Of a DNA stretch of 34,637 nt, positions 6,706-20,584 are shown one piece after another; within the stretch, counting starts at the first letter, position 1; every line of letters begins with the position of its first letter. A model generated the notes under the pieces. That model worked only from the letters and a program-made list of their open reading frames with translations. It did not search any database and had not been told where the DNA came from. Origin of the DNA: an uncultured Planctomycetales bacterium (lineage in GTDB: Bacteria > Planctomycetota > Phycisphaerae > UBA1845 > G020352895). A program made the position numbers and the translations under genes. Where the stretch lies: the NCBI GenBank assembly GCA_964571825.1, contig CAZNDQ010000002.1, forward strand, positions 1-34,637. Reading direction: 5' to 3'.

Positions 6706-9700
6706 TTATCGGTCGGATGTGCGCGCTGGATCGTGCACCGGCAGCTGCCCCACCGCATGCACGTCCCCCACCGTCGGCCGTGCTGCCCGCGTATTGTACG
6801 CCCGTCGCCACGCCTCCAGGTCCGGCGTCCGCGGAAATTGCTCCCCCGCAGGGTACGGATAGCCGCTCATCCCATGAAACGGCAGCGGCTCCACCGTCCC
6901 CGAGTAGGTTGTGTTCAGATCGCCGTCCTTCACCCAGCCCACGGCATAGAAGACGAACGAGCGCCGCCACCCCTCGCGTAGCGCCGGCAGCCCCCGCGCA
7001 TCAAACCGCATCGCCAGCTCATCCCCCGGCCCGAAGATCACGTAGCGGTTATCCGCCGCGCCGAGCAGCTCCGTTACCTCCCCGTACCGCGTCAGCATCC
7101 CCTGCGGCGGGCTCCAGTTCCCCACCGGGCTCACCTGCTGGTAGTCAAACGTCTCGAATCCCCGCTCGTCCCGCTGCATCCGCGAAAAACCGCGATAGCG
7201 CAGCTCGGCCGCTGCCACCGACAATCGCGTCTCGATGCACTCGGCTGCGCGGTCATCCAACCCGACGAACACCCGATCAAAGTACACGCACAAATTCGTC
7301 GACAGCCGCACGCGATAGTCATTCGCCGACAGGAACCGGCCAGTCAGTTCTACCGGCACCACCAGCCCCTTGCTTGTCGGCAGCCCGACCGACTCGATCG
7401 CCGTCGTCCACGCCCCATCCTCCCCCGGCACCTCCAGCGACAACGGCCGGATCGCATACCGCGAATCCTGGTCCAGCGCCATCACCGTGCTCGACTCCGG
7501 CCAGTAGATCCACCCGTCGAGGTACAGCATGATGCGCTCCGCCCCGCGCAGGTCGCCGAGGTCGAGCGTCAGCGCGTGCGGCTCCGCAATACCCTCGTAC
7601 GCCGCCAGCGGAAACTCCACTACCCGCCCGTCGCGCTCGCGCACAAGCGGCAGCACGTCGCGTCCGCGCTCGTCCGCCGCCGCCCGCGGCGCCACGCGCG
7701 TCCCCGGTGCAAAGAACTTGTCCTCCGGAAACGGCGGCGCCGTGAAATACTCGTTCGGCGCAATCTCCGTGCCGGGCGGATGATCGATCACGCGCAGCTC
7801 GAACCGGTCCGCGTACATCGTTTCGCGCAGCTCCTCCGTCAGCCGCAGTTCGTAATACCCCTCGCGCGCTGCAAGCTGTTCCCCCGTGATCAGCGTCAGC
7901 TCTGTGCTGTCCGGCTGATGGTAAACCCCCGGTGCCATCGGCACGCCCAGCGGCCCGATCCCCAGAATCTCGTTGACGAGTTCGAACCGCGCGCCGTTCC
8001 ACGCATACAGGAACCCGCACGAGGCCGAGACCTTGACCACCTCTTCCACGTCGATGCGTTGATCGATTCCCGGCTGAATGACGTTCTGCACCACACCGTT
8101 CGGCCACGTGATACGCACCACATCCACCCGCTCCACCGACCCGAGGCAGAAGTGCACCGCCTCCCCGCGCGCCGTCTGCCGCTGATAATGCCCGCCGCCG
8201 ACGATCTCCGCCGTCGCCCCCACACCGCTGCGATTACTCTTCTTGCCCGTCAGTTTCACTGCCAGCGAGTGCCGCTTCTCGCCCGCGGCATCGCGCCACA
8301 GCTCGACGCCTCCGCCGCGCCGCTTGACGACCAGGTCGAGCCGGCCGTCCCCATCCACATCACCGACCGCAAACGCCGCGATCGACCCGCGCTGCTCGCC
8401 CTTGGGCGCCAGCGCCATCGCGTGCGGCGCGGCAAATTCCTCCGCCCCGCCCGGCGCCGCCAAACACATCGTCTCCCCTTCCCCATCCAGCAGTAGTAGA
8501 TCGCCCCACCCATCGTTCCCCAGATCGGCCACGACGATCTGCGCCACGCCTTTCGTTCCCAGCGCCTCCGGCAGCTTCGCCGCGCGGCCCTCGAACCGAT
8601 TCCCGCCGCGATTGACGTAGACCCGCAGTTCGCTCCCCGCCGCGACGATGAGGTCCGCGCGCCCGTCGCGGTTCACGTCCGTCTCCGCGGCCGCGCGCCC
8701 GCCCTCCGGCAGCGCCGGCGAAAACTCCCCGCCCGCCGCATACACGCCCAGACGCTGATTCGTGAACAGTGTCCCCGCCGCGTCCGCGTTAAGCACGAAC
8801 AGGTCCGTATCCACGTCTCCGTCGAAATCCGCGTAGATCGCCGCCCGCGACCGCGCCACGTCGATCAACAGCCCCGCCTCATCCGTCCGGTCCGTGAACG
8901 TCCCGTCCCCGTTGTTCCGCAGCAGCGTGTTTACCGCGCCGCCCAGGTCATCCGGCACGCGCACCATTTCGCGCTCTGGCGCCTCCGCAAAGTCCGCGTC
9001 ATTCGCAATGAACAGATCCAGATCGTTGTCGTGATCGTAATCAAACAGCACGGCCGCCCCGCCGCACTGCGGCTCATTCACCCCCGCCCGCGCTGAGACA
9101 TCCTCGAACGTCCCATCCCCCTTGTTGCGATACAGCACGTTCGCCCCGCAGTTCACCACGTACAAGTCGGCGTGCCCGTCGTTGTCATGGTCGCCGAACG
9201 TCGCCGCCATCCCCGCGCCCGCATCACCCACCCCAGCCTTGCGCGTCACATCCGCGAACCGCCCCTTCCCGTTGTTTCGCCACAACCGATTCGCCGATCG
9301 CCCCTCCTCTTCCGCCGCGTTTACCTCGTAAATATCGAGGTCGCCGTCGCCGTCGTAGTCCCCCAACACCACGCCCCCGCCCAGCGACGCCGCGTACACC
9401 CGCCCGGCCCGCGCTGACTCATACTCCGCCCGCGGAATCGTCAGCGCCCCCGCCGCAGACTTGCCGCGCTCCCCACCTCCCAGCCCCGCCTCCTTCGTCG
9501 CCTCCACCAGCTTCGGCGCTGCACCGCTCACCGCGTTCGGATCGGCCCCGTGCCGTGGCAGCTCGATCAGCGCCGAGTACGCGCTCCGCTCCAGCGCCTC
9601 TGCCGTCTTCTCCGACGCATCGATCGTGTCCTTCACCCGGTTGTAAATCTCCGCGTGCCGCTCCGCTTCCTCCGCCAGACCCGCCCGCCGCGCCAGCACC

Positions 9701-10275
9701 AGCAGTTGATAGTGCGAACTCGGATGCCCCGGCTCCACCGCGACGGCCGCGCGGAACGCCGCCAGCGCCTTGTCCACCTCGTCCAGATGACGGTAACAAT
9801 CCCCGAGGTTGTAATACGCCCCGCGCGAGCCCTTGTCACGCTCGACGACGTACTCCAGATCACGCACGGCCGCCGCGTAGTCCCCCGTCCGCTTGTTCAC
9901 GATCCCCCGCAGGTAGTGCACCCCCAGCAGCGTCGGATCGAGCGCCCGCGCCTTTTCCAGCTCCGCCAGCGCCGCGTCATACTCCGTCATGCGCAGCAAC
10001 ACGATCGCCAGGTTGTAGCGGTCCGGTGCTGACTCCGGTGCCAGCTCGACGCACCGCCGGAACTCCCCCTCGGCTGCGCGAAAATCATCATTCTCGTACT
10101 GCGCCCGCCCCAGCGCCCGGTGCAGGTCGAGCTGCGCCGTCACAGTTGCCGCAGTCGCCTCGGCCGTCGTCGGTCCCTCCGCCGACACGCCTTGCGCGCA
10201 AAGGCCCACCGCCGGCGCCGCACACGCGCACAATGCCCACGCCCGCAGGAATCCCCCGGCGCGATATCGGTTCAT
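6706..10275 (-). CDS. Secreted TPR + FG-GAP/VCBS repeat + ASPIC/UnbV protein (CRTAC1 family) with a 444-aa uncharacterised C-terminal domain
   Basis: The ATG at 10275 gives the signal-like MNRYRAGGFLRAWALCACAAPAVGLCAQG. TPR-like helices follow. Next come repeated D.DGD.DL....... LyRN.GdGtF.DV units and an UnbV-like block (SNRSGVGATAEIV...RITWPNGVVQ). TAA at 6706-6708. Confidence 0.9.
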   Translation of the reverse strand: MNRYRAGGFLRAWALCACAAPAVGLCAQGVSAEGPTTAEATAATVTAQLDLHRALGRAQYENDDFRAAEGEFRRCVELAPESAPDRYNLAIVLLRMTEYDAALAELEKARALDPTLLGVHYLRGIVNKRTGDYAAAVRDLEYVVERDKGSRGAYYNLGDCYRHLDEVDKALAAFRAAVAVEPGHPSSHYQLLVLARRAGLAEEAERHAEIYNRVKDTIDASEKTAEALERSAYSALIELPRHGADPNAVSGAAPKLVEATKEAGLGGGERGKSAAGALTIPRAEYESARAGRVYAASLGGGVVLGDYDGDGDLDIYEVNAAEEEGRSANRLWRNNGKGRFADVTRKAGVGDAGAGMAATFGDHDNDGHADLYVVNCGANVLYRNKGDGTFEDVSARAGVNEPQCGGAAVLFDYDHDNDLDLFIANDADFAEAPEREMVRVPDDLGGAVNTLLRNNGDGTFTDRTDEAGLLIDVARSRAAIYADFDGDVDTDLFVLNADAAGTLFTNQRLGVYAAGGEFSPALPEGGRAAAETDVNRDGRADLIVAAGSELRVYVNRGGNRFEGRAAKLPEALGTKGVAQIVVADLGNDGWGDLLLLDGEGETMCLAAPGGAEEFAAPHAMALAPKGEQRGSIAAFAVGDVDGDGRLDLVVKRRGGGVELWRDAAGEKRHSLAVKLTGKKSNRSGVGATAEIVGGGHYQRQTARGEAVHFCLGSVERVDVVRITWPNGVVQNVIQPGIDQRIDVEEVVKVSASCGFLYAWNGARFELVNEILGIGPLGVPMAPGVYHQPDSTELTLITGEQLAAREGYYELRLTEELRETMYADRFELRVIDHPPGTEIAPNEYFTAPPFPEDKFFAPGTRVAPRAAADERGRDVLPLVRERDGRVVEFPLAAYEGIAEPHALTLDLGDLRGAERIMLYLDGWIYWPESSTVMALDQDSRYAIRPLSLEVPGEDGAWTTAIESVGLPTSKGLVVPVELTGRFLSANDYRVRLSTNLCVYFDRVFVGLDDRAAECIETRLSVAAAELRYRGFSRMQRDERGFETFDYQQVSPVGNWSPPQGMLTRYGEVTELLGAADNRYVIFGPGDELAMRFDARGLPALREGWRRSFVFYAVGWVKDGDLNTTYSGTVEPLPFHGMSGYPYPAGEQFPRTPDLEAWRRAYNTRAARPTVGDVHAVGQLPVHDPARTSDR

Positions 10276-12980
10276 GGATCGATCACCCAGATTCGCGACA
10301 GGTCCGTATCGACCGGATCCTCCAGCCCCCGCTCCCGCCCCACCCAGTCGATCAGCTTGTCCGGCGTCGCCGCCAGCATCTCCAGCCGCGCCTTCAGTTC
10401 CGGCGTATCCGGATACGCCGCCAGTCCCGCGTTCCACCACTCCCGCGCCCGCGCCACGTTCGCGTCCGTCCCGCTATCACATCCCTTGATATACGCATCA
10501 CCCAGCGCCACATACACGTCCACCAGCGTCCCCGGCCGCTGCTCGCTTGGCAGCGCCTGCTGCATCTCCAGCACCCGCTCGAAGTCCGCGATCGCGCTCG
10601 GCAGGTGATTCAGCTTTCGCGGCCAGTGCAGGTGGTTCATCCCGCGGATGAACACCGCCTGCCAGCACCCGGGATCGAGTTCCAGCACACGGTTCAACTC
10701 GTCAATCGACTTGTTGGACAGCGTCCCCTGACTGACGATCCCCGTCTCCGGCGAGGGCATCTTGTCCACGTAGGCCAGTGCCTTGTTGATCCGCACCGCT
10801 ACCGATTGCGGATGCGCCTCCGCAAGCTCCTCAAAAAACCGGATCGACCGGTCGAAGTAGGTGTATCCGTACGCGCGGATCATCGTGCGATAGATGTTCA
10901 TGTAGCGCATCGACTCCGGCGCCAGGCCGGTCGCCTTTTCCAGCTCCGCCAGCGCTGCACTGCGCCGCCCACCCCGGTCCAGCACCATCGCAAACTCAAA
11001 GCGCAGCTTCGCATCGTCCGGCGCCTTCGCCACGGCCGTCTTGAGCCGCAAAAAATCCTTCTTGAACCCCGCCGATGCGCCCCAATCCGTCTCGACCTCA
11101 GCCGCCTCACCCGTCCCATTCGTTTTTTCCGTGCCCGCCTTCTCCTCCCGCGCCGTCCGCGCCGCCGCCAGCATCGCTTCGCGCCACTTCCGCCGCTCGG
11201 CCAGATGGCTCTCCGGCGTTTCCTCCGTCACCGTGATGATCTTGTTCGCCTCGACCCCCTCGACGCGTTGCACGAATCCGCACGGCCAGCGCACCTCCAG
11301 CGACTCGATCGACTTGCGCGCCCCCAGCCCGAAGTGCAGCCGATACGGATTCTGGCAATGGTCCGCGTTTCCCCCGTCCATCTCGCGGATCTGCGTCAAC
11401 CCCTCGCTTCGCAGCGTCACCCGCGCGCCGATCGCAAAACGATTGCAGTCCTTGCCGCGCAGCTCGACCTGCAGCCAGTTCCCCGCGCTTGGATTCACAT
11501 TGCGATACAGCTTGCCCGGCTGGCCCTGATTGGACACGTACACGTCCAGCCGCCCGTCATTGTCGAAGTCGGCTGTCGCCAGCCCGCGCCCATCCCCCCG
11601 ATCGTCCAGACCGATCTCCGCCGCCACCTCGCGGAACACCTCGCCGCCCTCGTTGCGCCATACGCGCATCGTTTCGTAGCCGGCGAAGCTCTTGTTGCCG
11701 ATCCGCGGCCAGTTGGCTGCGTCCGTCGGATCGAACCCCGGCTGCGTCACCGTCATCGCCAGGTCGGTGAAGTACTCCCCTTCGCCCGCCGAGATGTAGC
11801 CGTTGGCGCAGATCAGATCGAGGTCACCGTCATTGTCGTAATCCCAGAACTTCGCGCTCCACGCCCACCCCGCATCATACACGTTCGCCTCGAACGAGAT
11901 ATCCGTGAACGTCCCGTCGCCCATGTTGCGGTAGAGCTGGTTTCCCTCCTGCACGTACTCCCGCGTCCAGATATTCGTAATGTACAGATCGAGCCAGCCA
12001 TCATTGTTATAATCACCGAAATCGACGTTCATCCCCTTGTACGTGTCCCAGCCGATCACCTCGTCCGTCACGTTCGTGAACGTCCCGTCGCCGTTGTTGC
12101 GGAAGACGCGGTCGTGTCCGAAGTCGTTCGCCAGCACGATGTCTTGGTCGCCGTCGTTGTCGTAATCGGCGCAGCCCACGTCCAGCGTCCAGCCCGGATC
12201 GTCCACCCCCAGCTCCGCCGCCACGTTCGTGAACGTCCCGTCGCCGTTGTTGCGATAGAGCACGTTCCGCCCTGCGTTTCGCGCCATCTCGAAGTCGTTG
12301 TGCATGATCCGTGTGTTCTCGAGGTTCCACAGATCGACGTAGGGAAAGTAATTCCCGATGTACAAATCGAGATCGTTGTCGCCGTCGTAATCGACCCACA
12401 CCGCTGCGTTGCCGTTGCCCGGATCGCCCGTCCCCGACTCCGCCGTCACGTCCGTGAACGTCCCGTCCCCGTTGTTGCGATAGAGGATGTTCCGCCCCCA
12501 TTTGACAACATACAGATCGAGGTCGCCGTCGTTGTCGTAGTCGCCGAACACCGCGTCCATCGACACGCCGTGCTCGCGGTTCGCCTCCGCCACGCCCGCC
12601 TTGCCCGCCACCTCCTCAAACGTCCCATCCCCCTTGTTGCGGCACAACGCGTTCGGCTTGCCCACGGCCGAGTTCGTCAGATACAGATCGATGTGCCCGT
12701 CGAAGTCGTAATCCACCGCCGCCACTGACGCCCCCACCGACGCCATCCACGGCATGATGTTGTCCAGCTTCGCGTCGAGCACGCACTTGTGGTGTACGTG
12801 CCGAATGCCGGCGGCCTGCGTCACGTCTTCGAACAGTTTTGCCTTCGCTTCCGCTTGCCCCCGCTTTCGACCGGATGTCGCCTCCCCCCCGCGCGCGCCC
12901 GCTGTGCACACCAACAGCACGACCGCTCCACTCAGCGCAAACCGGCACACACGCGACCCGACACCCGCCCGCCTCGACAT
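10272..12980 (-). CDS. Secreted FG-GAP/VCBS repeat + ASPIC/UnbV + C-terminal TPR-like protein (CRTAC1 family)
   Basis: The ATG at 12980 gives MSRRAGVGSRVCRFALSGAVVLLVCTAGARG. About 8 units of DYDNDGDLDLY..N.....LYRNNGDGTFT.V follow, then an UnbV block (NRFAIGARVTL...LEVRWPCGFVQ) and then a helical TPR-like region. The TGA stop (10272-10274) overlaps the ATG of the next gene (ATGA at 10272-10275). Confidence 0.9.
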   Translation of the reverse strand: MSRRAGVGSRVCRFALSGAVVLLVCTAGARGGEATSGRKRGQAEAKAKLFEDVTQAAGIRHVHHKCVLDAKLDNIMPWMASVGASVAAVDYDFDGHIDLYLTNSAVGKPNALCRNKGDGTFEEVAGKAGVAEANREHGVSMDAVFGDYDNDGDLDLYVVKWGRNILYRNNGDGTFTDVTAESGTGDPGNGNAAVWVDYDGDNDLDLYIGNYFPYVDLWNLENTRIMHNDFEMARNAGRNVLYRNNGDGTFTNVAAELGVDDPGWTLDVGCADYDNDGDQDIVLANDFGHDRVFRNNGDGTFTNVTDEVIGWDTYKGMNVDFGDYNNDGWLDLYITNIWTREYVQEGNQLYRNMGDGTFTDISFEANVYDAGWAWSAKFWDYDNDGDLDLICANGYISAGEGEYFTDLAMTVTQPGFDPTDAANWPRIGNKSFAGYETMRVWRNEGGEVFREVAAEIGLDDRGDGRGLATADFDNDGRLDVYVSNQGQPGKLYRNVNPSAGNWLQVELRGKDCNRFAIGARVTLRSEGLTQIREMDGGNADHCQNPYRLHFGLGARKSIESLEVRWPCGFVQRVEGVEANKIITVTEETPESHLAERRKWREAMLAAARTAREEKAGTEKTNGTGEAAEVETDWGASAGFKKDFLRLKTAVAKAPDDAKLRFEFAMVLDRGGRRSAALAELEKATGLAPESMRYMNIYRTMIRAYGYTYFDRSIRFFEELAEAHPQSVAVRINKALAYVDKMPSPETGIVSQGTLSNKSIDELNRVLELDPGCWQAVFIRGMNHLHWPRKLNHLPSAIADFERVLEMQQALPSEQRPGTLVDVYVALGDAYIKGCDSGTDANVARAREWWNAGLAAYPDTPELKARLEMLAATPDKLIDWVGRERGLEDPVDTDLSRIWVIDP

Positions 12981-13113
12981 GAGTCTCCCCGCTCTAAGCC
13001 GACGGGCGCTCGCACACCCGCGCTCGCCGGCGTTGACGCCCCGTTCATCTTGCCCGATCATTCAACCCGTTACGGGCCTCTCGTGCAACCGTCCTCCGCA
13101 CAGGTGATCCCGA

Positions 13114-15525: not shown

Positions 15526-15611
15526 TCGCACCGCACGTCCGGTACGTTCATTCCGCGCTCGGGTTGCCGACCGACGGAGCGCAGCGCGGCGCCTCGCGTT
15601 ACAATTCGCAG

Positions 15612-16790
15612 ATGGACTTTCACGCGACGGGCACGCTGCGGGTGGTCTGCGCTCCGGGGCTCGCGCCGTACCTGGCGGCTGAACTGGAGGCGCTCGGCCA
15701 CCTCCCCGCCGACGCGCAGGAGACGGGCGTCGAGCTGCCCGGCACGCTGCTCGACGCGATGCGGCTCAACCTGCACCTGCGCACCGCGCAGCACGTGCTC
15801 TATCTCCTGCGCGAGTTCGCCGCCGCGACGCCCGACGACCTCTATCGCGCCGCCTCGCTCATCGCCTGGGAGGAGATCATCCCGGCCGACGGCTACGTCA
15901 GCGTCGTCGCGCGCGTCGACACGCCGGCGATCCGGCACTCCGGGCTGCCGGCGCTCAAGCTCAAGGACGCGATCGTCGATCGCATCGCGGCCCGCCGCGG
16001 GCGCCGGCCGGACTCCGGCCCCGAGCGCGACCGGGCGGTGGTCCACCTCTTTTGGCACGGCCCGCGCGCTCGCATCCTCCTCGGCACTACCGGCCGCAAG
16101 CTCTCCGACCGCGGCTATCGCAAGATGCCCGGCAAGGCCCCGCTGGCGGAGACCCTCGCTGCCGGGATCCTGCTGGCGGCCGGGTACGAGGGGCGGGGGC
16201 CGCTCGTGCTGCCGATGTGCGGCAGCGGCACGCTGGCGATCGAGGCCGCGCTGATCGCCACCGGCCGGGCGCCGGGGCTGCTGCGGAGCAATTACGGCTT
16301 CATGCACGTCGTCGGGTTCGAGGACGCCGAATGGCAGCGGCTGCGGCGCGAAGCACATGCGGCCGCCCACCGCGTCAAAGTCATACCGCGGATCATTGCG
16401 ACGGACATCGATCCGCGCATGGTCGAGGCGACGCAGCGCAACGCCACGACGGCCGGGGTCCAGCACCTCATCGACACCGGCGTCTGCGATTTCTTCGAGA
16501 CCCCCGTGCCGCCCAGCCCCGGACTCGTCATCCTCAACCCCGAGTACGGTGAACGGCTCGGCGAAATGCAGGCGCTGGAGTCAACCTACAAACGCATCGG
16601 CGACTTCTTCAAGCAGCGCTGCCCCGGCTACACCGGCTGGGTCTTCACCGGCAACCTCGACCTCGCCAAGCGCATCGGCCTCCGCGCCTCGCGCCGCATC
16701 CCCATGCACAACGCCAAAATCGACTGCCGCCTCCTCCGCTTCGAACTCTACGCCGGCACCCGCGAACCGCGCGACGGCGAGCAGACGTAA
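15612..16790 (+). CDS. THUMP-domain class I SAM-dependent RNA methyltransferase (UPF0020/RlmL-like)
   Basis: ATG at 15612 (MDFHATGTLRVVC...). THUMP-like N-terminal half. SAM motif I is PMCGSGTLAIEAA, followed by ATDIDPRMV and the catalytic NPEYGERL (NPPY-type). TAA at 16788-16790. High GC like the flanks. Confidence 0.85.
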   Translation: MDFHATGTLRVVCAPGLAPYLAAELEALGHLPADAQETGVELPGTLLDAMRLNLHLRTAQHVLYLLREFAAATPDDLYRAASLIAWEEIIPADGYVSVVARVDTPAIRHSGLPALKLKDAIVDRIAARRGRRPDSGPERDRAVVHLFWHGPRARILLGTTGRKLSDRGYRKMPGKAPLAETLAAGILLAAGYEGRGPLVLPMCGSGTLAIEAALIATGRAPGLLRSNYGFMHVVGFEDAEWQRLRREAHAAAHRVKVIPRIIATDIDPRMVEATQRNATTAGVQHLIDTGVCDFFETPVPPSPGLVILNPEYGERLGEMQALESTYKRIGDFFKQRCPGYTGWVFTGNLDLAKRIGLRASRRIPMHNAKIDCRLLRFELYAGTREPRDGEQT

Positions 16791-16935
16791 CCGTGCGACG
16801 CATCACGTTGCATTATTCGCGCTTGGATCGACCGCTGAGTTCGGATACAGTGGTAACCTGGTTGTTCGGGGCTACGTGCTGGACGAATGTGTAGCCGCAC
16901 TAGGTTGTTTGGTCATTGTCGATTGTCGCAGCAAC

Positions 16936-17670
16936 ATGCCAAGACTCATGAATCCGGGTGACATGCGAAAGGCGAGCAGCCTTCCCTTCTGCTACATCTG
17001 CGGCAGAGCGTTCGCCAAGGGCGAGTCAATCAACCGCGATCATGTTCCACCAAGAAACATGTTCCCGGAGGGTAAGAGGGACAACCCCCTCGTACTCAAG
17101 ACACACATGCACTGCAACGAGGCATCGTCGGATTCCGATCAACTATGGGGCGAATTTATCTCGCTACTGCATTCGGCAAACCGACGACGCCAAAAGCTCA
17201 CACAACATGTAACCAGAGGATCGTCGGGCCGCGGTGCATACCTACGAGATGCTCTCCCCGAAAGATTCATCCGGCGCATTGTTCGAGCGTTTCACGCAGC
17301 ACTGTATCGGGAGTTCCTTCCGGACAACGAGAACTGTTTCAGCACTTTCCCGCCACTTCCACGATTCAAGAACTCATTTCGAGACCCGGTACTTTGCGAG
17401 ACAGATACTCGACGATGGCACATATATCAGGTATTATTGGCTAATTGTCTGCTCGGAAATGTGGACGCAATCCGCTGCTACTCTGGGCAGTGTCGGTACA
17501 CGTGTGTATGGAGTACGCTCAGAAGGGGTGCGCGGCCAATATGTCTGTATGGACTTGAAATCTGCCACTGGGAGCAACTCAGCGTTAAATGTCTTCCGCC
17601 ACGCCCATGTGTCGGCGGATATTGGGGAGTCTCATGCCCAGCTAACGCGTCGCGCGAGCGAGGAGGCTGA
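16936..17670 (+). CDS. Orphan HNH (His-Me finger)-like nuclease-domain protein with Cys/Trp-rich C-terminal region
   Basis: Only the low-GC part of track ORF 16357..17670 is credible. From the ATG at 16936: C19-x2-C22-G, D35-H36-V-P-P, N50-P-L and H57-M-H-C-N61. This matches the HNH layout CxxC...DH.xP...N..L...H/CxxC-N. The last 85 aa hold 9 Cys and 4 Trp. No signal peptide. The start is uncertain (in-frame GTG at 16876 and TTG at 16909 are also possible). TGA at 17668-17670. Confidence 0.6.
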   Translation: MPRLMNPGDMRKASSLPFCYICGRAFAKGESINRDHVPPRNMFPEGKRDNPLVLKTHMHCNEASSDSDQLWGEFISLLHSANRRRQKLTQHVTRGSSGRGAYLRDALPERFIRRIVRAFHAALYREFLPDNENCFSTFPPLPRFKNSFRDPVLCETDTRRWHIYQVLLANCLLGNVDAIRCYSGQCRYTCVWSTLRRGARPICLYGLEICHWEQLSVKCLPPRPCVGGYWGVSCPANASRERGG

Positions 17671-17729
17671 GGAGGTGTGCTCAGCGTTCGCTGATGGTGT
17701 CACTGTGGCAGCCAATCGTACGGAAAGGA

Positions 17730-17848
17730 CTATTGCAATTCGTCGACATATCCACGTGCAGATACGAGTGTGCAATCTATCTTTGCGTTCTTTGGGATTT
17801 CCCGGTACAAGGGCAGGGCGATCTGCTGGGTGGTCAATGACTCAATAG
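17730..17848 (-). pseudogene. Displaced 3' end of the IS-interrupted membrane-anchored protein gene
   Basis: Removing 17849-19197 plus one ATAG copy joins 19202 to this segment in frame. The frame then reads ...VPETT-I-ESLTTQQIALPLYREIPKNAKIDCTLVSARGYVDELQ, ending at TAG (complement of 17730-17732). Low GC like the rest of the islet. Confidence 0.45.
17845..17848. repeat. Target-site duplication ATAG (left copy)
   Basis: ATAG immediately outside the left IR. An identical ATAG lies immediately outside the right IR at 19198-19201. Confidence 0.6.
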
Positions 17849-17876
17849 CAGGCCGCTAAAGAACTCCGTTTTTTCG
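17849..17876. repeat. IS left terminal inverted repeat (IRL)
   Basis: 16 nt perfect match with the reverse complement of IRR. After a 2-nt indel it extends imperfectly (CGTTTTTTCG vs CGTTGTTTTG). Confidence 0.8.
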
Positions 17877-17934
17877 TTCCCGTTTTCCAGATTTGTCGTA
17901 TACTGCATCGAACATCCGTCACGGAGGACATTCG

Positions 17935-19065
17935 ATGCGTGGTCAAGTCGATCATCAGGGCACGGTGTTTCATGTATTCCACGTCGAGGACCTGATTCCA
18001 GCGGCTCATCCGCTGCGGGCGGTCAAGGCGCGGGTCGACGTGGTGCTGGCGTCGATGTCGACGCGGTTCGCGCGGGCCTACGGGCGGACCGGGCGGCCGA
18101 GCATCCCGCCGGAGCGGCTGATCAAAGCGCTGCTGCTGCAGGCGCTCTACAGCATCCGCAGCGAGACGCAGCTCTGCGAGCAGATCTCGTACAACATGCT
18201 CTTCCGCTGGTTCCTCGACATGCAGCCGTCGGAGTCGTCCTGGACACCCGAGGTGTTCAGCATGAACCGCAAGCGGTTCGACAAACACGGCTTCGTGCGC
18301 GACTTCTTTGACCGCGTGGTCTCCGACGCGCTGCTCAAGGACCTCGCCAGCCCGGACCACTTCAGCGTCGACGGGACGCTGATCCAGTCGTTCGCCTCGA
18401 TGAAGAGCCTGCGGCCGCGCGGCAGCGCCGATCGGCGCGTCCGCGATGGATCGGACGACGACGACCCGGGCAACCCGACGGTCAACTTCCGCAAGGAGAA
18501 ACGAACGAACGCGACGCATCGCAGCCTCGTCGACCCGCAGGCGCGGCTGGCGCGCAAGGGATCGGGCAAGCCGGCGCTGCTCAGCCACAGCGCGCACGTG
18601 CTGATGGAGAACCGCAACGGGCTGTGCCTGGACGTGAGGGTGGACGCGGCCGACGGCCGCGCCGAGCGCCGCGCCGCGCGGCGGATGCTCAATCGCACGC
18701 TGAGCCGTCACCGGCTGCTGCCCAAGACGCTGGGGGCCGATGCCGGCTACCGCGCCGGCGCGTTCCTGTTGTCGCTGGAGGAGGACGGGACGAAACCGCA
18801 CGTGCCGATGGGTGAGCCGTGCATCCGCGGCAAGAGCGAGAACGCCGAGGCGCGGCACCGTGCGGTGCGGCGCATGCGGACCAAGGGGTACGCCGTCAGT
18901 CAGCGGATTCGCAAGCGGGTGGAGGAGATCATTGGCTGGTGCAAGCAGGTGGGCGGGCTGGCGCGGGCACGGTTCGTCGGAAGGTGGAAAATCAAGCAAC
19001 AGGCGGAGATCGCCGCCGCCGCCTACAACCTGCTCCGACTGGCCCGACTGGCGCCCGCGATCTGA
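17935..19065 (+). CDS. IS5-family DDE transposase (InsH/DUF772-type N-terminus)
   Basis: ATG at 17935 preceded by GGAGGA (17923-17928). N-terminal IPPERLIKALLLQALYSIRSETQLCEQISYNMLFRWFL is the DUF772/IS5 signature. Candidate DDE residues are in FSVDGTLIQS, LGADAGY and RKRVEEIIGWCK (R-3-E-6-K). TGA at 19063-19065. Confidence 0.9.
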   Translation: MRGQVDHQGTVFHVFHVEDLIPAAHPLRAVKARVDVVLASMSTRFARAYGRTGRPSIPPERLIKALLLQALYSIRSETQLCEQISYNMLFRWFLDMQPSESSWTPEVFSMNRKRFDKHGFVRDFFDRVVSDALLKDLASPDHFSVDGTLIQSFASMKSLRPRGSADRRVRDGSDDDDPGNPTVNFRKEKRTNATHRSLVDPQARLARKGSGKPALLSHSAHVLMENRNGLCLDVRVDAADGRAERRAARRMLNRTLSRHRLLPKTLGADAGYRAGAFLLSLEEDGTKPHVPMGEPCIRGKSENAEARHRAVRRMRTKGYAVSQRIRKRVEEIIGWCKQVGGLARARFVGRWKIKQQAEIAAAAYNLLRLARLAPAI

Positions 19066-19151
19066 ACCGACCGCGAGCGAAAACCGAGCAGACGCCGAAA
19101 AACGACAACTCAAGGCCAACGGCAAACGCTCCAATGACCCCGCGCCGAACA

Positions 19152-19631
19152 TCAAAAAACAATCCAACCCTCAAAACAACGGTTCTTTAGCGGCCTGATA
19201 GTAGTCTCTGGTACAAGAACATAGCTGCGTGCCGCGAGGCCCGACGGTGTTGTCGCATCTGGTGCCGACACCGCCACAGTCACTTGGGTTAACCTGATGG
19301 GTGATCCGTTATAGATGGCGACATAAGCAGATTCGAGAACATATTTGGCATCGATCTCGACAAGTGATAACTGACGACCGTCAAGGTCACGCACGCGGCT
19401 AGATGGTCGCGCAAGCATTGTCTGTGTGTACACCGGAGTCCATTGGAGTTCCATGTCTTCATTCGTAAGCGCGAGTCTTTCAATGTTTCCCGAAATACGG
19501 CCAATTCGTAGTACTAGCCCTTCCGCTGACGACACGATCAGGTATGGCGTCGCGAGATAGCAGGTCACTGCCGCGGCGAGACCGGCCACGAGTAGGACCA
19601 CGAGCATCCAAGCGAACGAGACGGTTCGCAT
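19152..19631 (-). CDS. N-terminally membrane-anchored protein of unknown function, with its 3' end replaced by IS sequence
   Basis: ATG at 19631 with GGGGAG 7 nt upstream. TM anchor is FAWMLVVLLVAGLAAAVTCYL. Low GC. The last 14 codons (RPLKNRCFEGWIVF) and the stop are encoded by the IS right end (19196-19152), so the present ORF is a chimera. Confidence 0.55.
   Translation of the reverse strand: MRTVSFAWMLVVLLVAGLAAAVTCYLATPYLIVSSAEGLVLRIGRISGNIERLALTNEDMELQWTPVYTQTMLARPSSRVRDLDGRQLSLVEIDAKYVLESAYVAIYNGSPIRLTQVTVAVSAPDATTPSGLAARSYVLVPETTIRPLKNRCFEGWIVF
19170..19197. repeat. IS right terminal inverted repeat (IRR)
   Basis: Reverse complement of 19182-19197 equals 17849-17864. Sub-terminal A-rich AAAACAAC-like motifs are mirrored at the left end. 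Confidence 0.8.
19198..19201. repeat. Target-site duplication ATAG (right copy)
   Basis: Identical to 17845-17848 and directly abuts IRR. Confidence 0.6.
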
Positions 19632-19740
19632 GATCCTGCTCCCCTAGGCAACCACCTAATGAGCTGCGCGATTTATCGCACCGAACGCACTATACGTCAA
19701 GCGTTGAAACGAGTGAAAACGGCGCGCCGTCAAAGATGGA

Positions 19741-20448
19741 TCAGCTTAACTTCCCCTTTTTCCCCTGCTGCGTAATCACCGCCTGTTCACGGTCGAGGAT
19801 GAGCTGGAGGACTTCTTCCTCGTCTTCCGTCTCGCGCAAGGCGGCCAGCGTCGTCTCGTCGAGCATGCGCATCAGCCGCGCGAGGACTTGCAGGTGCTGG
19901 CGGTCATCGTGGCTGAGGAGGAGGAAGAAGAGGTCGGTCAGCACGCCGCCGGGGGCGTCGAAGACCACGCCGGCCTGCACCCGCCCGATGCAGACCAGCG
20001 GCTCGCCGGTGGCGTAGGGCATCGGCTGCCGCGGGTGGGGGATGGCGATGCCGTTGGGCAGTCCCGTCGAGCAGAGCCCCTCGCGCTCCTGCAGCGCCGC
20101 CAGCAGCCCGTCCTTGTCCCAGACCAGTCCGGTGCGCTCGGCCAGCCCGATCAGCTCGCGCAGAACTGAGGGCTTGGACCGCGCGTGCAGGTGCATGTCG
20201 ATGCCCTCGGCGCCGAGGCGGGCCCCGACGATGCTCTGGTCGTCGCCGTCGCCCATGGCCCGGTCGAGGCTCTCGAGCTGGGCCTGGGTCAGCGTATGGG
20301 CCTCCTGTTGCAGCCACTCCGTCACCTGGGCGCGGTTGACCCGCCACTGCCCGCTGACCTTGTGTCCGGGTAGCTTGCCCTTGTCGGCCAGCTTGGCCAC
20401 CTCGCGCACATCCATGCCGATGTGCCGGGCCAGCTCCTCGAGTGTCAT
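19741..20448 (-). CDS. HTH (excisionase/MerR-like, HTH_17) fused to a PTS EIIA(Ntr/Fru)-type domain
   Basis: ATG at 20448 (MTLEELARHIGMDVREVAKLADKGKLPGHKVSGQWRVNRAQVTEWL is an HTH_17 pattern). A GTG at 20463 is also possible. The EIIA core includes the phospho-His motif GLPNGIAIPHPR and LFFLLLS...HLQVLARL. TGA at 19741-19743. Confidence 0.85.
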   Translation of the reverse strand: MTLEELARHIGMDVREVAKLADKGKLPGHKVSGQWRVNRAQVTEWLQQEAHTLTQAQLESLDRAMGDGDDQSIVGARLGAEGIDMHLHARSKPSVLRELIGLAERTGLVWDKDGLLAALQEREGLCSTGLPNGIAIPHPRQPMPYATGEPLVCIGRVQAGVVFDAPGGVLTDLFFLLLSHDDRQHLQVLARLMRMLDETTLAALRETEDEEEVLQLILDREQAVITQQGKKGKLS

Positions 20449-20584
20449 GCTGCGGTAGGGCACGGCTGATCCTCGTCCCGGCCGGACCGTCCGACCTGTC
20501 CAATTCTACCGCCGCCGGGAGTCGGGGGCGCCACGACCGGCCGGAATCGCACCTGCGGCGGTCGGCGTCCAATTGTCCGCGCGG

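Follow-up and report, generated by a model that had tools for sequence, protein, structure and literature searches.

The contig analyzed here in its full length of 34,637 nucleotides (hereafter the window) derives from an uncultured Planctomycetales bacterium and contains, at positions 16791-19740, a short islet of low guanine plus cytosine (GC) content. The islet separates two convergent host genes, one coding for an RlmL-like THUMP methyltransferase and the other for a protein in which an excisionase-type HTH_17 domain is fused to a PTS_EIIA_2 domain (hereafter the EIIA gene). It carries two open reading frames (ORFs), denoted orfA and orfB, and an insertion sequence (IS) located within orfB. 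The features of the locus are as follows.

15564-16790, plus strand: left flank, RlmL-like THUMP rRNA guanine methyltransferase gene (Pfam UPF0020, RlmL_1st and THUMP; NCBIfam RlmK/RlmL N-terminal half, E 8e-87); GC 0.71, GC at third codon positions (GC3) 0.92
16791-16935: low-GC spacer 5' of orfA, GC 0.545, with no ORF and no repeat (composition, repeat scan)
16936-17670, plus strand: orfA, coding for a stand-alone, cytoplasmic protein of 244 amino acids (aa) (homologue search, alignment, AlphaFold)
17730-17848, minus strand: detached 3' end of orfB, with 36 codons and the stop (reconstruction of the ORF without the IS and with a single copy of the target duplication)
17845-17848: left ATAG target-site duplication (repeat analysis)
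17849-19197, plus strand: IS5-family element of 1,349 bp with 16-bp inverted repeats at 17849-17864 and 19182-19197; GC 0.66
17893-19065, plus strand: IS transposase, 390 aa, DUF772 and DDE_Tnp_1 (Pfam; NCBIfam transpos_IS5_4)
19198-19201: right ATAG target-site duplication (repeat analysis)
19202-19631, minus strand: 5' part of orfB, native codons 1-143 and part of codon 144 (ORF list, reconstruction)
19632-19740: low-GC spacer from the EIIA stop to the orfB start, GC 0.541, with a match to a sigma-70-like promoter at 19717-19689 of the minus strand
19741-20463, minus strand: right flank, HTH_17 and PTS_EIIA_2 (PtsN-like) gene (Pfam, NCBIfam), conserved across Phycisphaerae

Composition of the islet and the insertion sequence

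The part of the islet that does not belong to the IS has 54% GC, compared to 68.4 +/- 3.5% in the rest of the contig. When GC was calculated in bins of 300 nt, the mean outside the islet was 0.684 +/- 0.035 with a minimum of 0.597, and the islet bins ranged from 0.52 to 0.55, about four standard deviations lower; across the 34.6-kb contig, all 600-nt bins have a GC of at least 0.61 except at the islet. The low GC is uniform over the coding and non-coding sub-parts, all of which fall between 0.517 and 0.547 (0.545 in the spacer between the RlmL-like gene and orfA, 0.541 in orfA, 0.517 in the spacer between orfA and the IS, 0.547 in the body of orfB and 0.541 in the spacer between orfB and the EIIA gene). 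Similarly, orfA and orfB have GC3 values of 0.56 and 0.55, respectively, compared to 0.80-0.92 for the host genes and 0.88 for the IS transposase gene. The edges of the islet are the two stop codons of the convergent host genes, TAA at 16788-16790 for the RlmL/THUMP gene and 19741-19743 for the EIIA gene. Thus, both the bin values and the boundary coordinates confirm the drop between these two stops that had been noticed in a reading made from the sequence only (hereafter the sequence-only reading), and all six counts of G+C per 60 nt made by hand in that reading were reproduced exactly (32, 30, 24, 26, 45, and 40). The islet without the IS, previously estimated at about 1.6 kb, measures 1,597 bp, with 1,058 bp to the left and 539 bp to the right of the element.

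No integrase was found among the ORFs of the window, searched also against Pfam, no tRNA was detected in a scan of the window, and no direct repeats of 8 nt or longer span the islet boundaries, in agreement with the earlier statement that integrase, tRNA, and att repeat are all missing. The window contains no Rfam families and no excess of terminator-like sites; there are three promoter-like sites against 1.0 +/- 1.0 expected. The islet DNA is compositionally foreign to the host chromosome. It resembles genomic islands and integrative elements in the sharp compositional break and in the presence of an accessory gene but differs from them in the lack of an integrase, a tRNA target, and flanking direct repeats, and in its size of only 1.6 kb. 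The islet itself is ordinary accessory DNA.

The segment 17849-19197 is an ordinary IS5-family element, with a length of about 1.35 kb, short terminal inverted repeats (16 bp, perfect, CAGGCCGCTAAAGAAC), a DDE transposase, and a 4-bp target duplication, and shows nothing unusual for this family; the transposase scores 205.8 bits with the NCBIfam IS5_4 model, for which the cut-off is 140. The insertion point is inside orfB, so that the 3' end of orfB is cut off. The GC and GC3 of the element fit the host, whereas those of the surrounding islet DNA do not, and the IS therefore appears to be native to the host lineage. Because the ATAG duplication is intact, the insertion was a simple transposition, without an IS-mediated rearrangement. 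Under the scenario that we favor (see below), a host-adapted element of this family would have entered the 3' end of orfB after the islet had been acquired. An independent short-read assembly of the same population (L144, Logan SRR9016297, 1273 bp) corresponds to positions 18573-19845 of the window and is 100% identical over the junction between the IS and orfB. This contig ends within the IS, as expected if the element were present in multiple copies in the genome or in the community.

The orfA family and its probable HNH core

In the sequence-only reading, the orfA product was regarded as an orphan, a view that was not borne out. A word-seeded search detected 53 homologues with 28-40% identity, all of about 260 aa and all annotated as hypothetical, and the ATG of orfA at 16936 lines up with the N-termini of these relatives. 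A profile search against 1.84 billion cluster representatives (clusters at 50% identity) yielded 1,101 matches at E<1e-3, of which 276 had E<1e-30, so that the family comprises about 1,100 clusters. Nearly all of the matches span the full profile of about 260 aa and are single-domain proteins, with no additions. None of the Pfam, NCBIfam, and PADLOC models covers the family, the best PADLOC match for orfA having an E value of 0.05. A full-text search of the literature on HNH proteins, Type IV systems, and surveys of uncharacterized domains yielded general reviews only, none of which could be linked to the orfA family by name.

Two conserved blocks are apparent in the alignment of the family. 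The first one is an HNH motif of the form CxxC...DH...THxxCN, in which L16, F18, C19, Y20, C22, D35-H36-V-P-P, H57, C60-N61, and D68 are invariant or nearly so; specifically, C19, C22, D35, H36, and H57 are invariant and C60 and N61 are conserved in at least 90% of the sequences, with C19, C22, H57, and C60 as a CCHC variant of the zinc-ligand quartet. The second block includes R114, F119, H120, A122, L123, and Y124 (the "FHAALY" helix), P140, R171, D177, Y188, C190, W192, C203, Y210, W212, C225, G227, and Y229. The orfA protein of the window retains all residues that are invariant in the family. A frameshift that would hide the C-terminal tail typical of the family (...LDPF) was considered and rejected, given that the other frames past 17670 contain no motif of this kind.

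The AlphaFold2 model built with the family alignment has a predicted local distance difference test score (pLDDT) of 92.1 and a predicted TM-score (pTM) of 0.91. In this model, a strand predicted at residues 32-36 ends at H36 and is followed by a strand at 53-57 and a helix at 58-62 that carries C60 and N61, which would correspond to the beta-beta-alpha-metal topology. Several weak similarities point in the same direction. Among 49 family members compared to Pfam, 16 matched HNH_5 (best E value 4.4e-4) and 6 matched HNH, all under the gathering scores; orfA itself showed similarity to four PHROG families of HNH endonucleases over residues 16 to about 90, with E values of 0.006-0.07; and a Foldseek search of the BFVD with the orfA model produced local matches to small HNH domains of phages, the best of which has a probability of 0.94 and an E value of 0.13 over 57 columns. 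The motif, the modeled core, and these Pfam, PHROG, and BFVD matches are mutually consistent, in line with the HNH-like character proposed in the sequence-only reading. Given that these signals stay below the curated thresholds, the HNH assignment is only probable, not proven: judging from the alignment and the model, the N-terminal region of about residues 16-62 is probably an HNH (His-Me finger) core. A sequence-profile search of the PDB, made to assign a fold to the C-terminal domain of orfA, yielded nothing but a zinc-ribbon match that was discarded as a chance similarity.

With respect to the core, the orfA family is similar to Pfam HNH_5 (PF14279) and HNH (PF01844) and to PHROG 338, 9645, 5718, and 6050, all of which share the CxxC...DH...CN beta-beta-alpha-metal arrangement. 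It is distinguished from these families by the second pair of zinc ligands, which is HxxC rather than CxxC, by the sub-threshold level of all matches, by the absence of homologues from the viral contigs searched, and by a conserved C-terminal domain. The latter is an alpha/beta domain of about 180 residues (approximately 63-244) for which Foldseek searches of the PDB (best E value 0.28, TM < 0.2) and of the BFVD returned nothing at E<0.001, and which is not covered by Pfam.

Genomic contexts and possible function of the orfA family

The neighborhoods of orfA homologues were analyzed in 80 metagenomic loci and nine additional loci with gene calls, which after dereplication represent 59 lineages. 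The GC of the loci that carry these genes ranges from 38 to 67%, and in 26 of 33 loci the homologue has a lower GC than the host flank, with a median difference of -4 points. No homologue was identified in 2.9 million viral contigs. Conserved neighbors were not detected either, and across the 59 lineages no family is common to the immediate neighbors or to those within 2.6 kb on each side: BLASTP clustering of all ORFs within about 3 kb of the homologues produced only groups that reflect near-identical loci, and among 146 neighbors no Pfam family occurred in more than two and no PADLOC family in more than three. A phmmer comparison of the immediate upstream and downstream genes, together with orfB, revealed a single marginal pair, in which orfB was not involved. 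Pfam domains in the ten upstream genes that are tightly coupled to orfA homologues are mixed and include a Macro domain, DUF6868, TaqI_C, a tRNA-ligase C-terminus, and Schlafen/AlbA_2 along with uncharacterized proteins. Methyltransferases adjoin the homologues in just a few of the 59 lineages, and there is no cognate methyltransferase. One homologue adjoins genes for a ribonucleotide reductase and a small nucleotidyltransferase, and another one lies within a low-GC block of hypothetical genes that is flanked by housekeeping genes. Overall, the orfA family has the profile of a self-contained accessory gene that is sporadically transferred and is sometimes carried as cargo of defence islands or mobile elements.

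In locus L148 (1-15550), the orfA homologue is cargo of an element that resembles an integrative and conjugative element (ICE). It has the gene for a DUF3363 relaxase on one side and that for a TraG-type coupling protein on the other, and genes for an integrase, ParA, an RPA-family replication initiator (PF10134), and an IS91-family transposase are nearby. In L149 (6100-16876), the homologue directly follows a gene for a HipA kinase toxin and adjoins an HNH_2 protein and a DISARM-like block that consists of an SNF2 helicase, a DEAD helicase with MZB/DUF1998, and an Eco57I/N6-methyltransferase. Comparison of the orfA family with the HNH_2 protein using hhalign showed no similarity, which as a comparison to one protein is a weak test. 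In the 95-kb contig L004 (1-4485), genes for a Herpes_ori_bp/AAA_30 helicase and a family-B DNA polymerase are located about 3.5 kb from the orfA homologue, which on its other side adjoins the gene for a C5 methylase, with a HATPase_c protein encoded on that side as well; this contig may be a self-replicating mobile element.

Given the lack of a methyltransferase or immunity partner, together with the ICE-like, DISARM-like, and low-GC contexts, a nuclease with a role in genetic conflict appears to be the most likely function of orfA. As a whole, we consider it moderately probable that the locus is a foreign patch with a solo HNH-family nuclease of this kind rather than a two-gene system. Under this scenario, the islet would be a small horizontally acquired patch surrounded by core genes on the chromosome of a member of Phycisphaerae, and orfA would encode a metal-dependent DNA nuclease in which a structural zinc ion is coordinated by C19, C22, H57, and C60, with H36 as the general base and N61 as a ligand of the catalytic metal. 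The C-terminal 180 or so residues, which are rich in invariant His, Asp, Trp, and Tyr and conserved Cys, would select or sense the substrate or regulate the activity. Because a cognate methyltransferase and an immunity gene are both missing, self-protection would have to come from the specificity of the enzyme itself, as in Type IV enzymes of the McrA type, or from tight control.

In its overall design, the orfA family is similar to the McrA-type (Type IV) HNH enzymes, such as E. coli McrA, ScoMcrA, and TagI. In both cases, a single chain of about 260-280 aa combines an HNH core with a second, non-catalytic domain and is encoded without a cognate methyltransferase, on mobile elements or in variable regions. 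The orfA family differs from these enzymes in that its HNH core is N-terminal, i.e., the domain order is reversed, and shows no significant match to McrA-family models. By this analogy, orfA could be a single-protein nuclease that participates in genetic conflict in the manner of McrA, although a specific Type IV-like defence mechanism can be proposed only tentatively. A more far-reaching version, which we regard as doubtful, is that the family constitutes a novel class of single-protein immune nucleases in which the N-terminal HNH core is controlled by a C-terminal sensor of unseen fold. The invariant His and Asp residues of such a sensor, together with its cluster of aromatic residues and Cys, could read a modified base or another signature of the invader, and genes of this type would move as cargo of ICEs or defence islands. 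The islet reveals a sizeable unannotated family of stand-alone HNH-type proteins, the larger domain of which is confidently modeled but has no known relative. If the family is a self-sufficient restriction or defence nuclease, the Type IV enzymes would gain a new sensor domain, and the proteins might provide a new reagent for reading DNA modifications.

Several observations weigh against the scenario of a solo conflict nuclease. No HNH profile is matched at a curated threshold, and orfA itself has no Pfam HNH match. PADLOC yields no significant match, and no SRA, SBD, EVE/ASCH, McrA N-terminal, or other fold that reads modified DNA was detected in the C-terminal domain. Many neighbors of orfA homologues are plain housekeeping genes, such as those for trigger factor, a tRNA ligase, and an rRNA dimethylase. 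The orfA protein of the window lacks the last 20 or so residues, with the ...LDPF tail, that are found in most relatives and could therefore be impaired. Finally, we infer acquisition by insertion from composition only.

Among the alternatives, the one that survives best, even if it appears rather unlikely, is that orfA is a selfish free-standing endonuclease of the homing type which would spread through cleavage of empty sites, with the islet as its footprint. This possibility is compatible with the sporadic distribution over hosts of widely different GC, the tendency of the gene to have a lower GC than its host, and its solo, intergenic location, and the nearest weak matches in sequence and structure are phage HNH endonucleases. 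However, the absence of homologues from the viral contigs and of an intron or intein context, the cellular or ICE-like neighborhoods, and the lack of conservation of the insertion sites all argue against homing. Moreover, neither solved nor viral structures match the C-terminal domain, in which a known homing DNA-binding module was therefore not detected.

Site of the islet and strand skew switch

The site occupied by the islet was compared to related loci by using the EIIA protein to scan 185,579 species genomes, which yielded 59 EIIA loci from Phycisphaerae and other genomes. In none of these is an RlmL-like gene, orfA, orfB, or the IS located beside the EIIA gene, and accordingly, no empty junction is available for comparison; look-ups of the exact proteins encoded by the genes that flank the islet, with three choices of the start, also returned nothing. 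The fusion of HTH_17 with PTS_EIIA_2 is conserved across Phycisphaerae (237 proteins at E<1e-60; loci L005-L061, L145, and L146). The closest EIIA orthologues, with 67-71% identity, all come from metagenome-assembled genomes of Phycisphaerae, which places the contig in a high-GC genome of this group of Planctomycetota, and the genes of those with 69-71% identity are located between a gene for an arginyl-tRNA-protein transferase and a pair of genes for an extracytoplasmic function (ECF) sigma factor and its anti-sigma factor. Given that no relative has an RlmL-like gene near EIIA, the site between the RlmL-like and EIIA genes is a synteny break with respect to all available relatives; given also that the neighbors of EIIA in the closest relatives differ on either side, the contig is rearranged on both sides of the EIIA gene.

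The second point of interest in this locus is that the islet coincides with a switch in strand skew polarity. The GC skew at third codon positions, calculated on the plus strand, is negative in each of the 9 host genes to the left of the islet, with values from -0.21 to -0.62, and positive in each of the 8 to the right of it, with values from +0.03 to +0.55, independently of gene orientation, with the switch located between 16790 and about 20500. The cumulative GC skew reaches its minimum at approximately 16.8-17.4 kb, i.e., at the islet. By comparison, the Phycisphaerae EIIA loci in which the skew is of similar strength keep the same polarity throughout 20 kb. A switch from minus to plus is the polarity typical of an origin; the endpoint of an inversion would look alike on a contig of 34.6 kb. 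No DnaA boxes (with up to one mismatch) and no origin marker genes were found anywhere in the window. The switch may explain why the foreign DNA and the IS are located exactly at this position.

These findings bear on the possibility that the islet is filler at a rearrangement junction, or at a switch point of the origin or terminus type, where foreign or decaying DNA collects. This scenario, which we consider improbable as a full explanation, is compatible with the gene content of a foreign patch with a solo nuclease. It is in agreement with the flip of the third-position skew at the islet, set against the uniform skew of the relatives, and with the different neighbors of the closest EIIA orthologues on both sides. 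It is weakened by the lack of DnaA boxes and origin marker genes in the window, where an origin and an inversion endpoint are in any case indistinguishable on a contig of this length, and by the intact target duplication of the IS, which shows that this element mediated no rearrangement.

orfB, the remaining alternatives and the surrounding genes

The present ORF of orfB codes for 159 aa (19152-19631, minus strand), and its last 13 codons are derived from the IS. Excision of the IS and one copy of ATAG restores a frame of 182 aa that ends at 17730. The gene is convergent with orfA and has the orientation of the EIIA gene, which it follows at a distance of 109 bp. Its GC at the three codon positions (0.62/0.48/0.55) is similar to that of coding sequences. 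A search of 5.8 billion proteins produced no homologue apart from orfB itself, and no match was detected in Pfam, PADLOC, PHROG, or the PDB. The AlphaFold model, obtained from the single sequence, has a pLDDT of 41.6 and is unusable overall; it is confident only for a transmembrane helix predicted at about residues 6-26, after which the rest of the chain appears to be beta-rich. The N-terminal membrane helix is consistent with the earlier prediction that the second protein of the islet is anchored in the membrane. Accordingly, orfB is most likely a lineage-specific ORFan unrelated to orfA, if it is a gene at all.

In the sequence-only reading, the pair of a nuclease and a membrane protein in a low-GC islet was taken as typical of defence, abortive-infection, or toxin modules, and such a module could now be inactivated by the IS. 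Defence systems do include pairs of this kind, both ORFs have the same foreign composition and together fill the islet, and selection against a costly gene could account for the IS in orfB. Nevertheless, such a two-gene module is very unlikely. The genes are convergent and not co-transcribed, neither protein matches a PADLOC model, orfB has no homologue, and neither a conserved partner nor an orfB-like neighbor is present in the 59 orfA lineages. The homologues of the two genes thus never co-occur, which was the criterion given in the sequence-only reading itself, and because of this, the module interpretation fails. More generally, a low-GC islet with a nuclease and a membrane protein is insufficient to call a defence module, and orfA and orfB have no shared history.

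The least probable alternative is that the islet is ancestral and has drifted to low GC as decaying pseudogenes: the disruption of orfB, the missing C-terminal tail of orfA, and the lower GC that is usual for non-coding DNA of high-GC genomes would fit, but orfA has a full-length frame with all invariant residues, its closest homologues (about 40% identity) come from unrelated metagenomes with none among the 59 EIIA loci examined, and a uniform drop of 14 points with sharp edges at two stop codons is better explained by acquisition.

The host genes around the islet are core genes according to Pfam and NCBIfam, namely those for aspartyl-tRNA synthetase, an MMPL/HAE3 transporter, the RlmL-like methyltransferase, and the HTH_17 and PTS-EIIA protein. 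Additional core genes of the window encode a membrane protein with a Wzy_C domain, a PduO-type adenosyltransferase, Ffh, SelB, and SelA. The genes for SelB and SelA, which belong to the machinery for selenocysteine incorporation, are adjacent at the right end of the contig (30550-33932). In the left half of the window, at 9555-13061, two long ORFs overlap on opposite strands (9555-12728, plus strand, 1057 aa; 10272-13061, minus strand, 929 aa), and the GC of this region is slightly lower, at 0.61-0.65.

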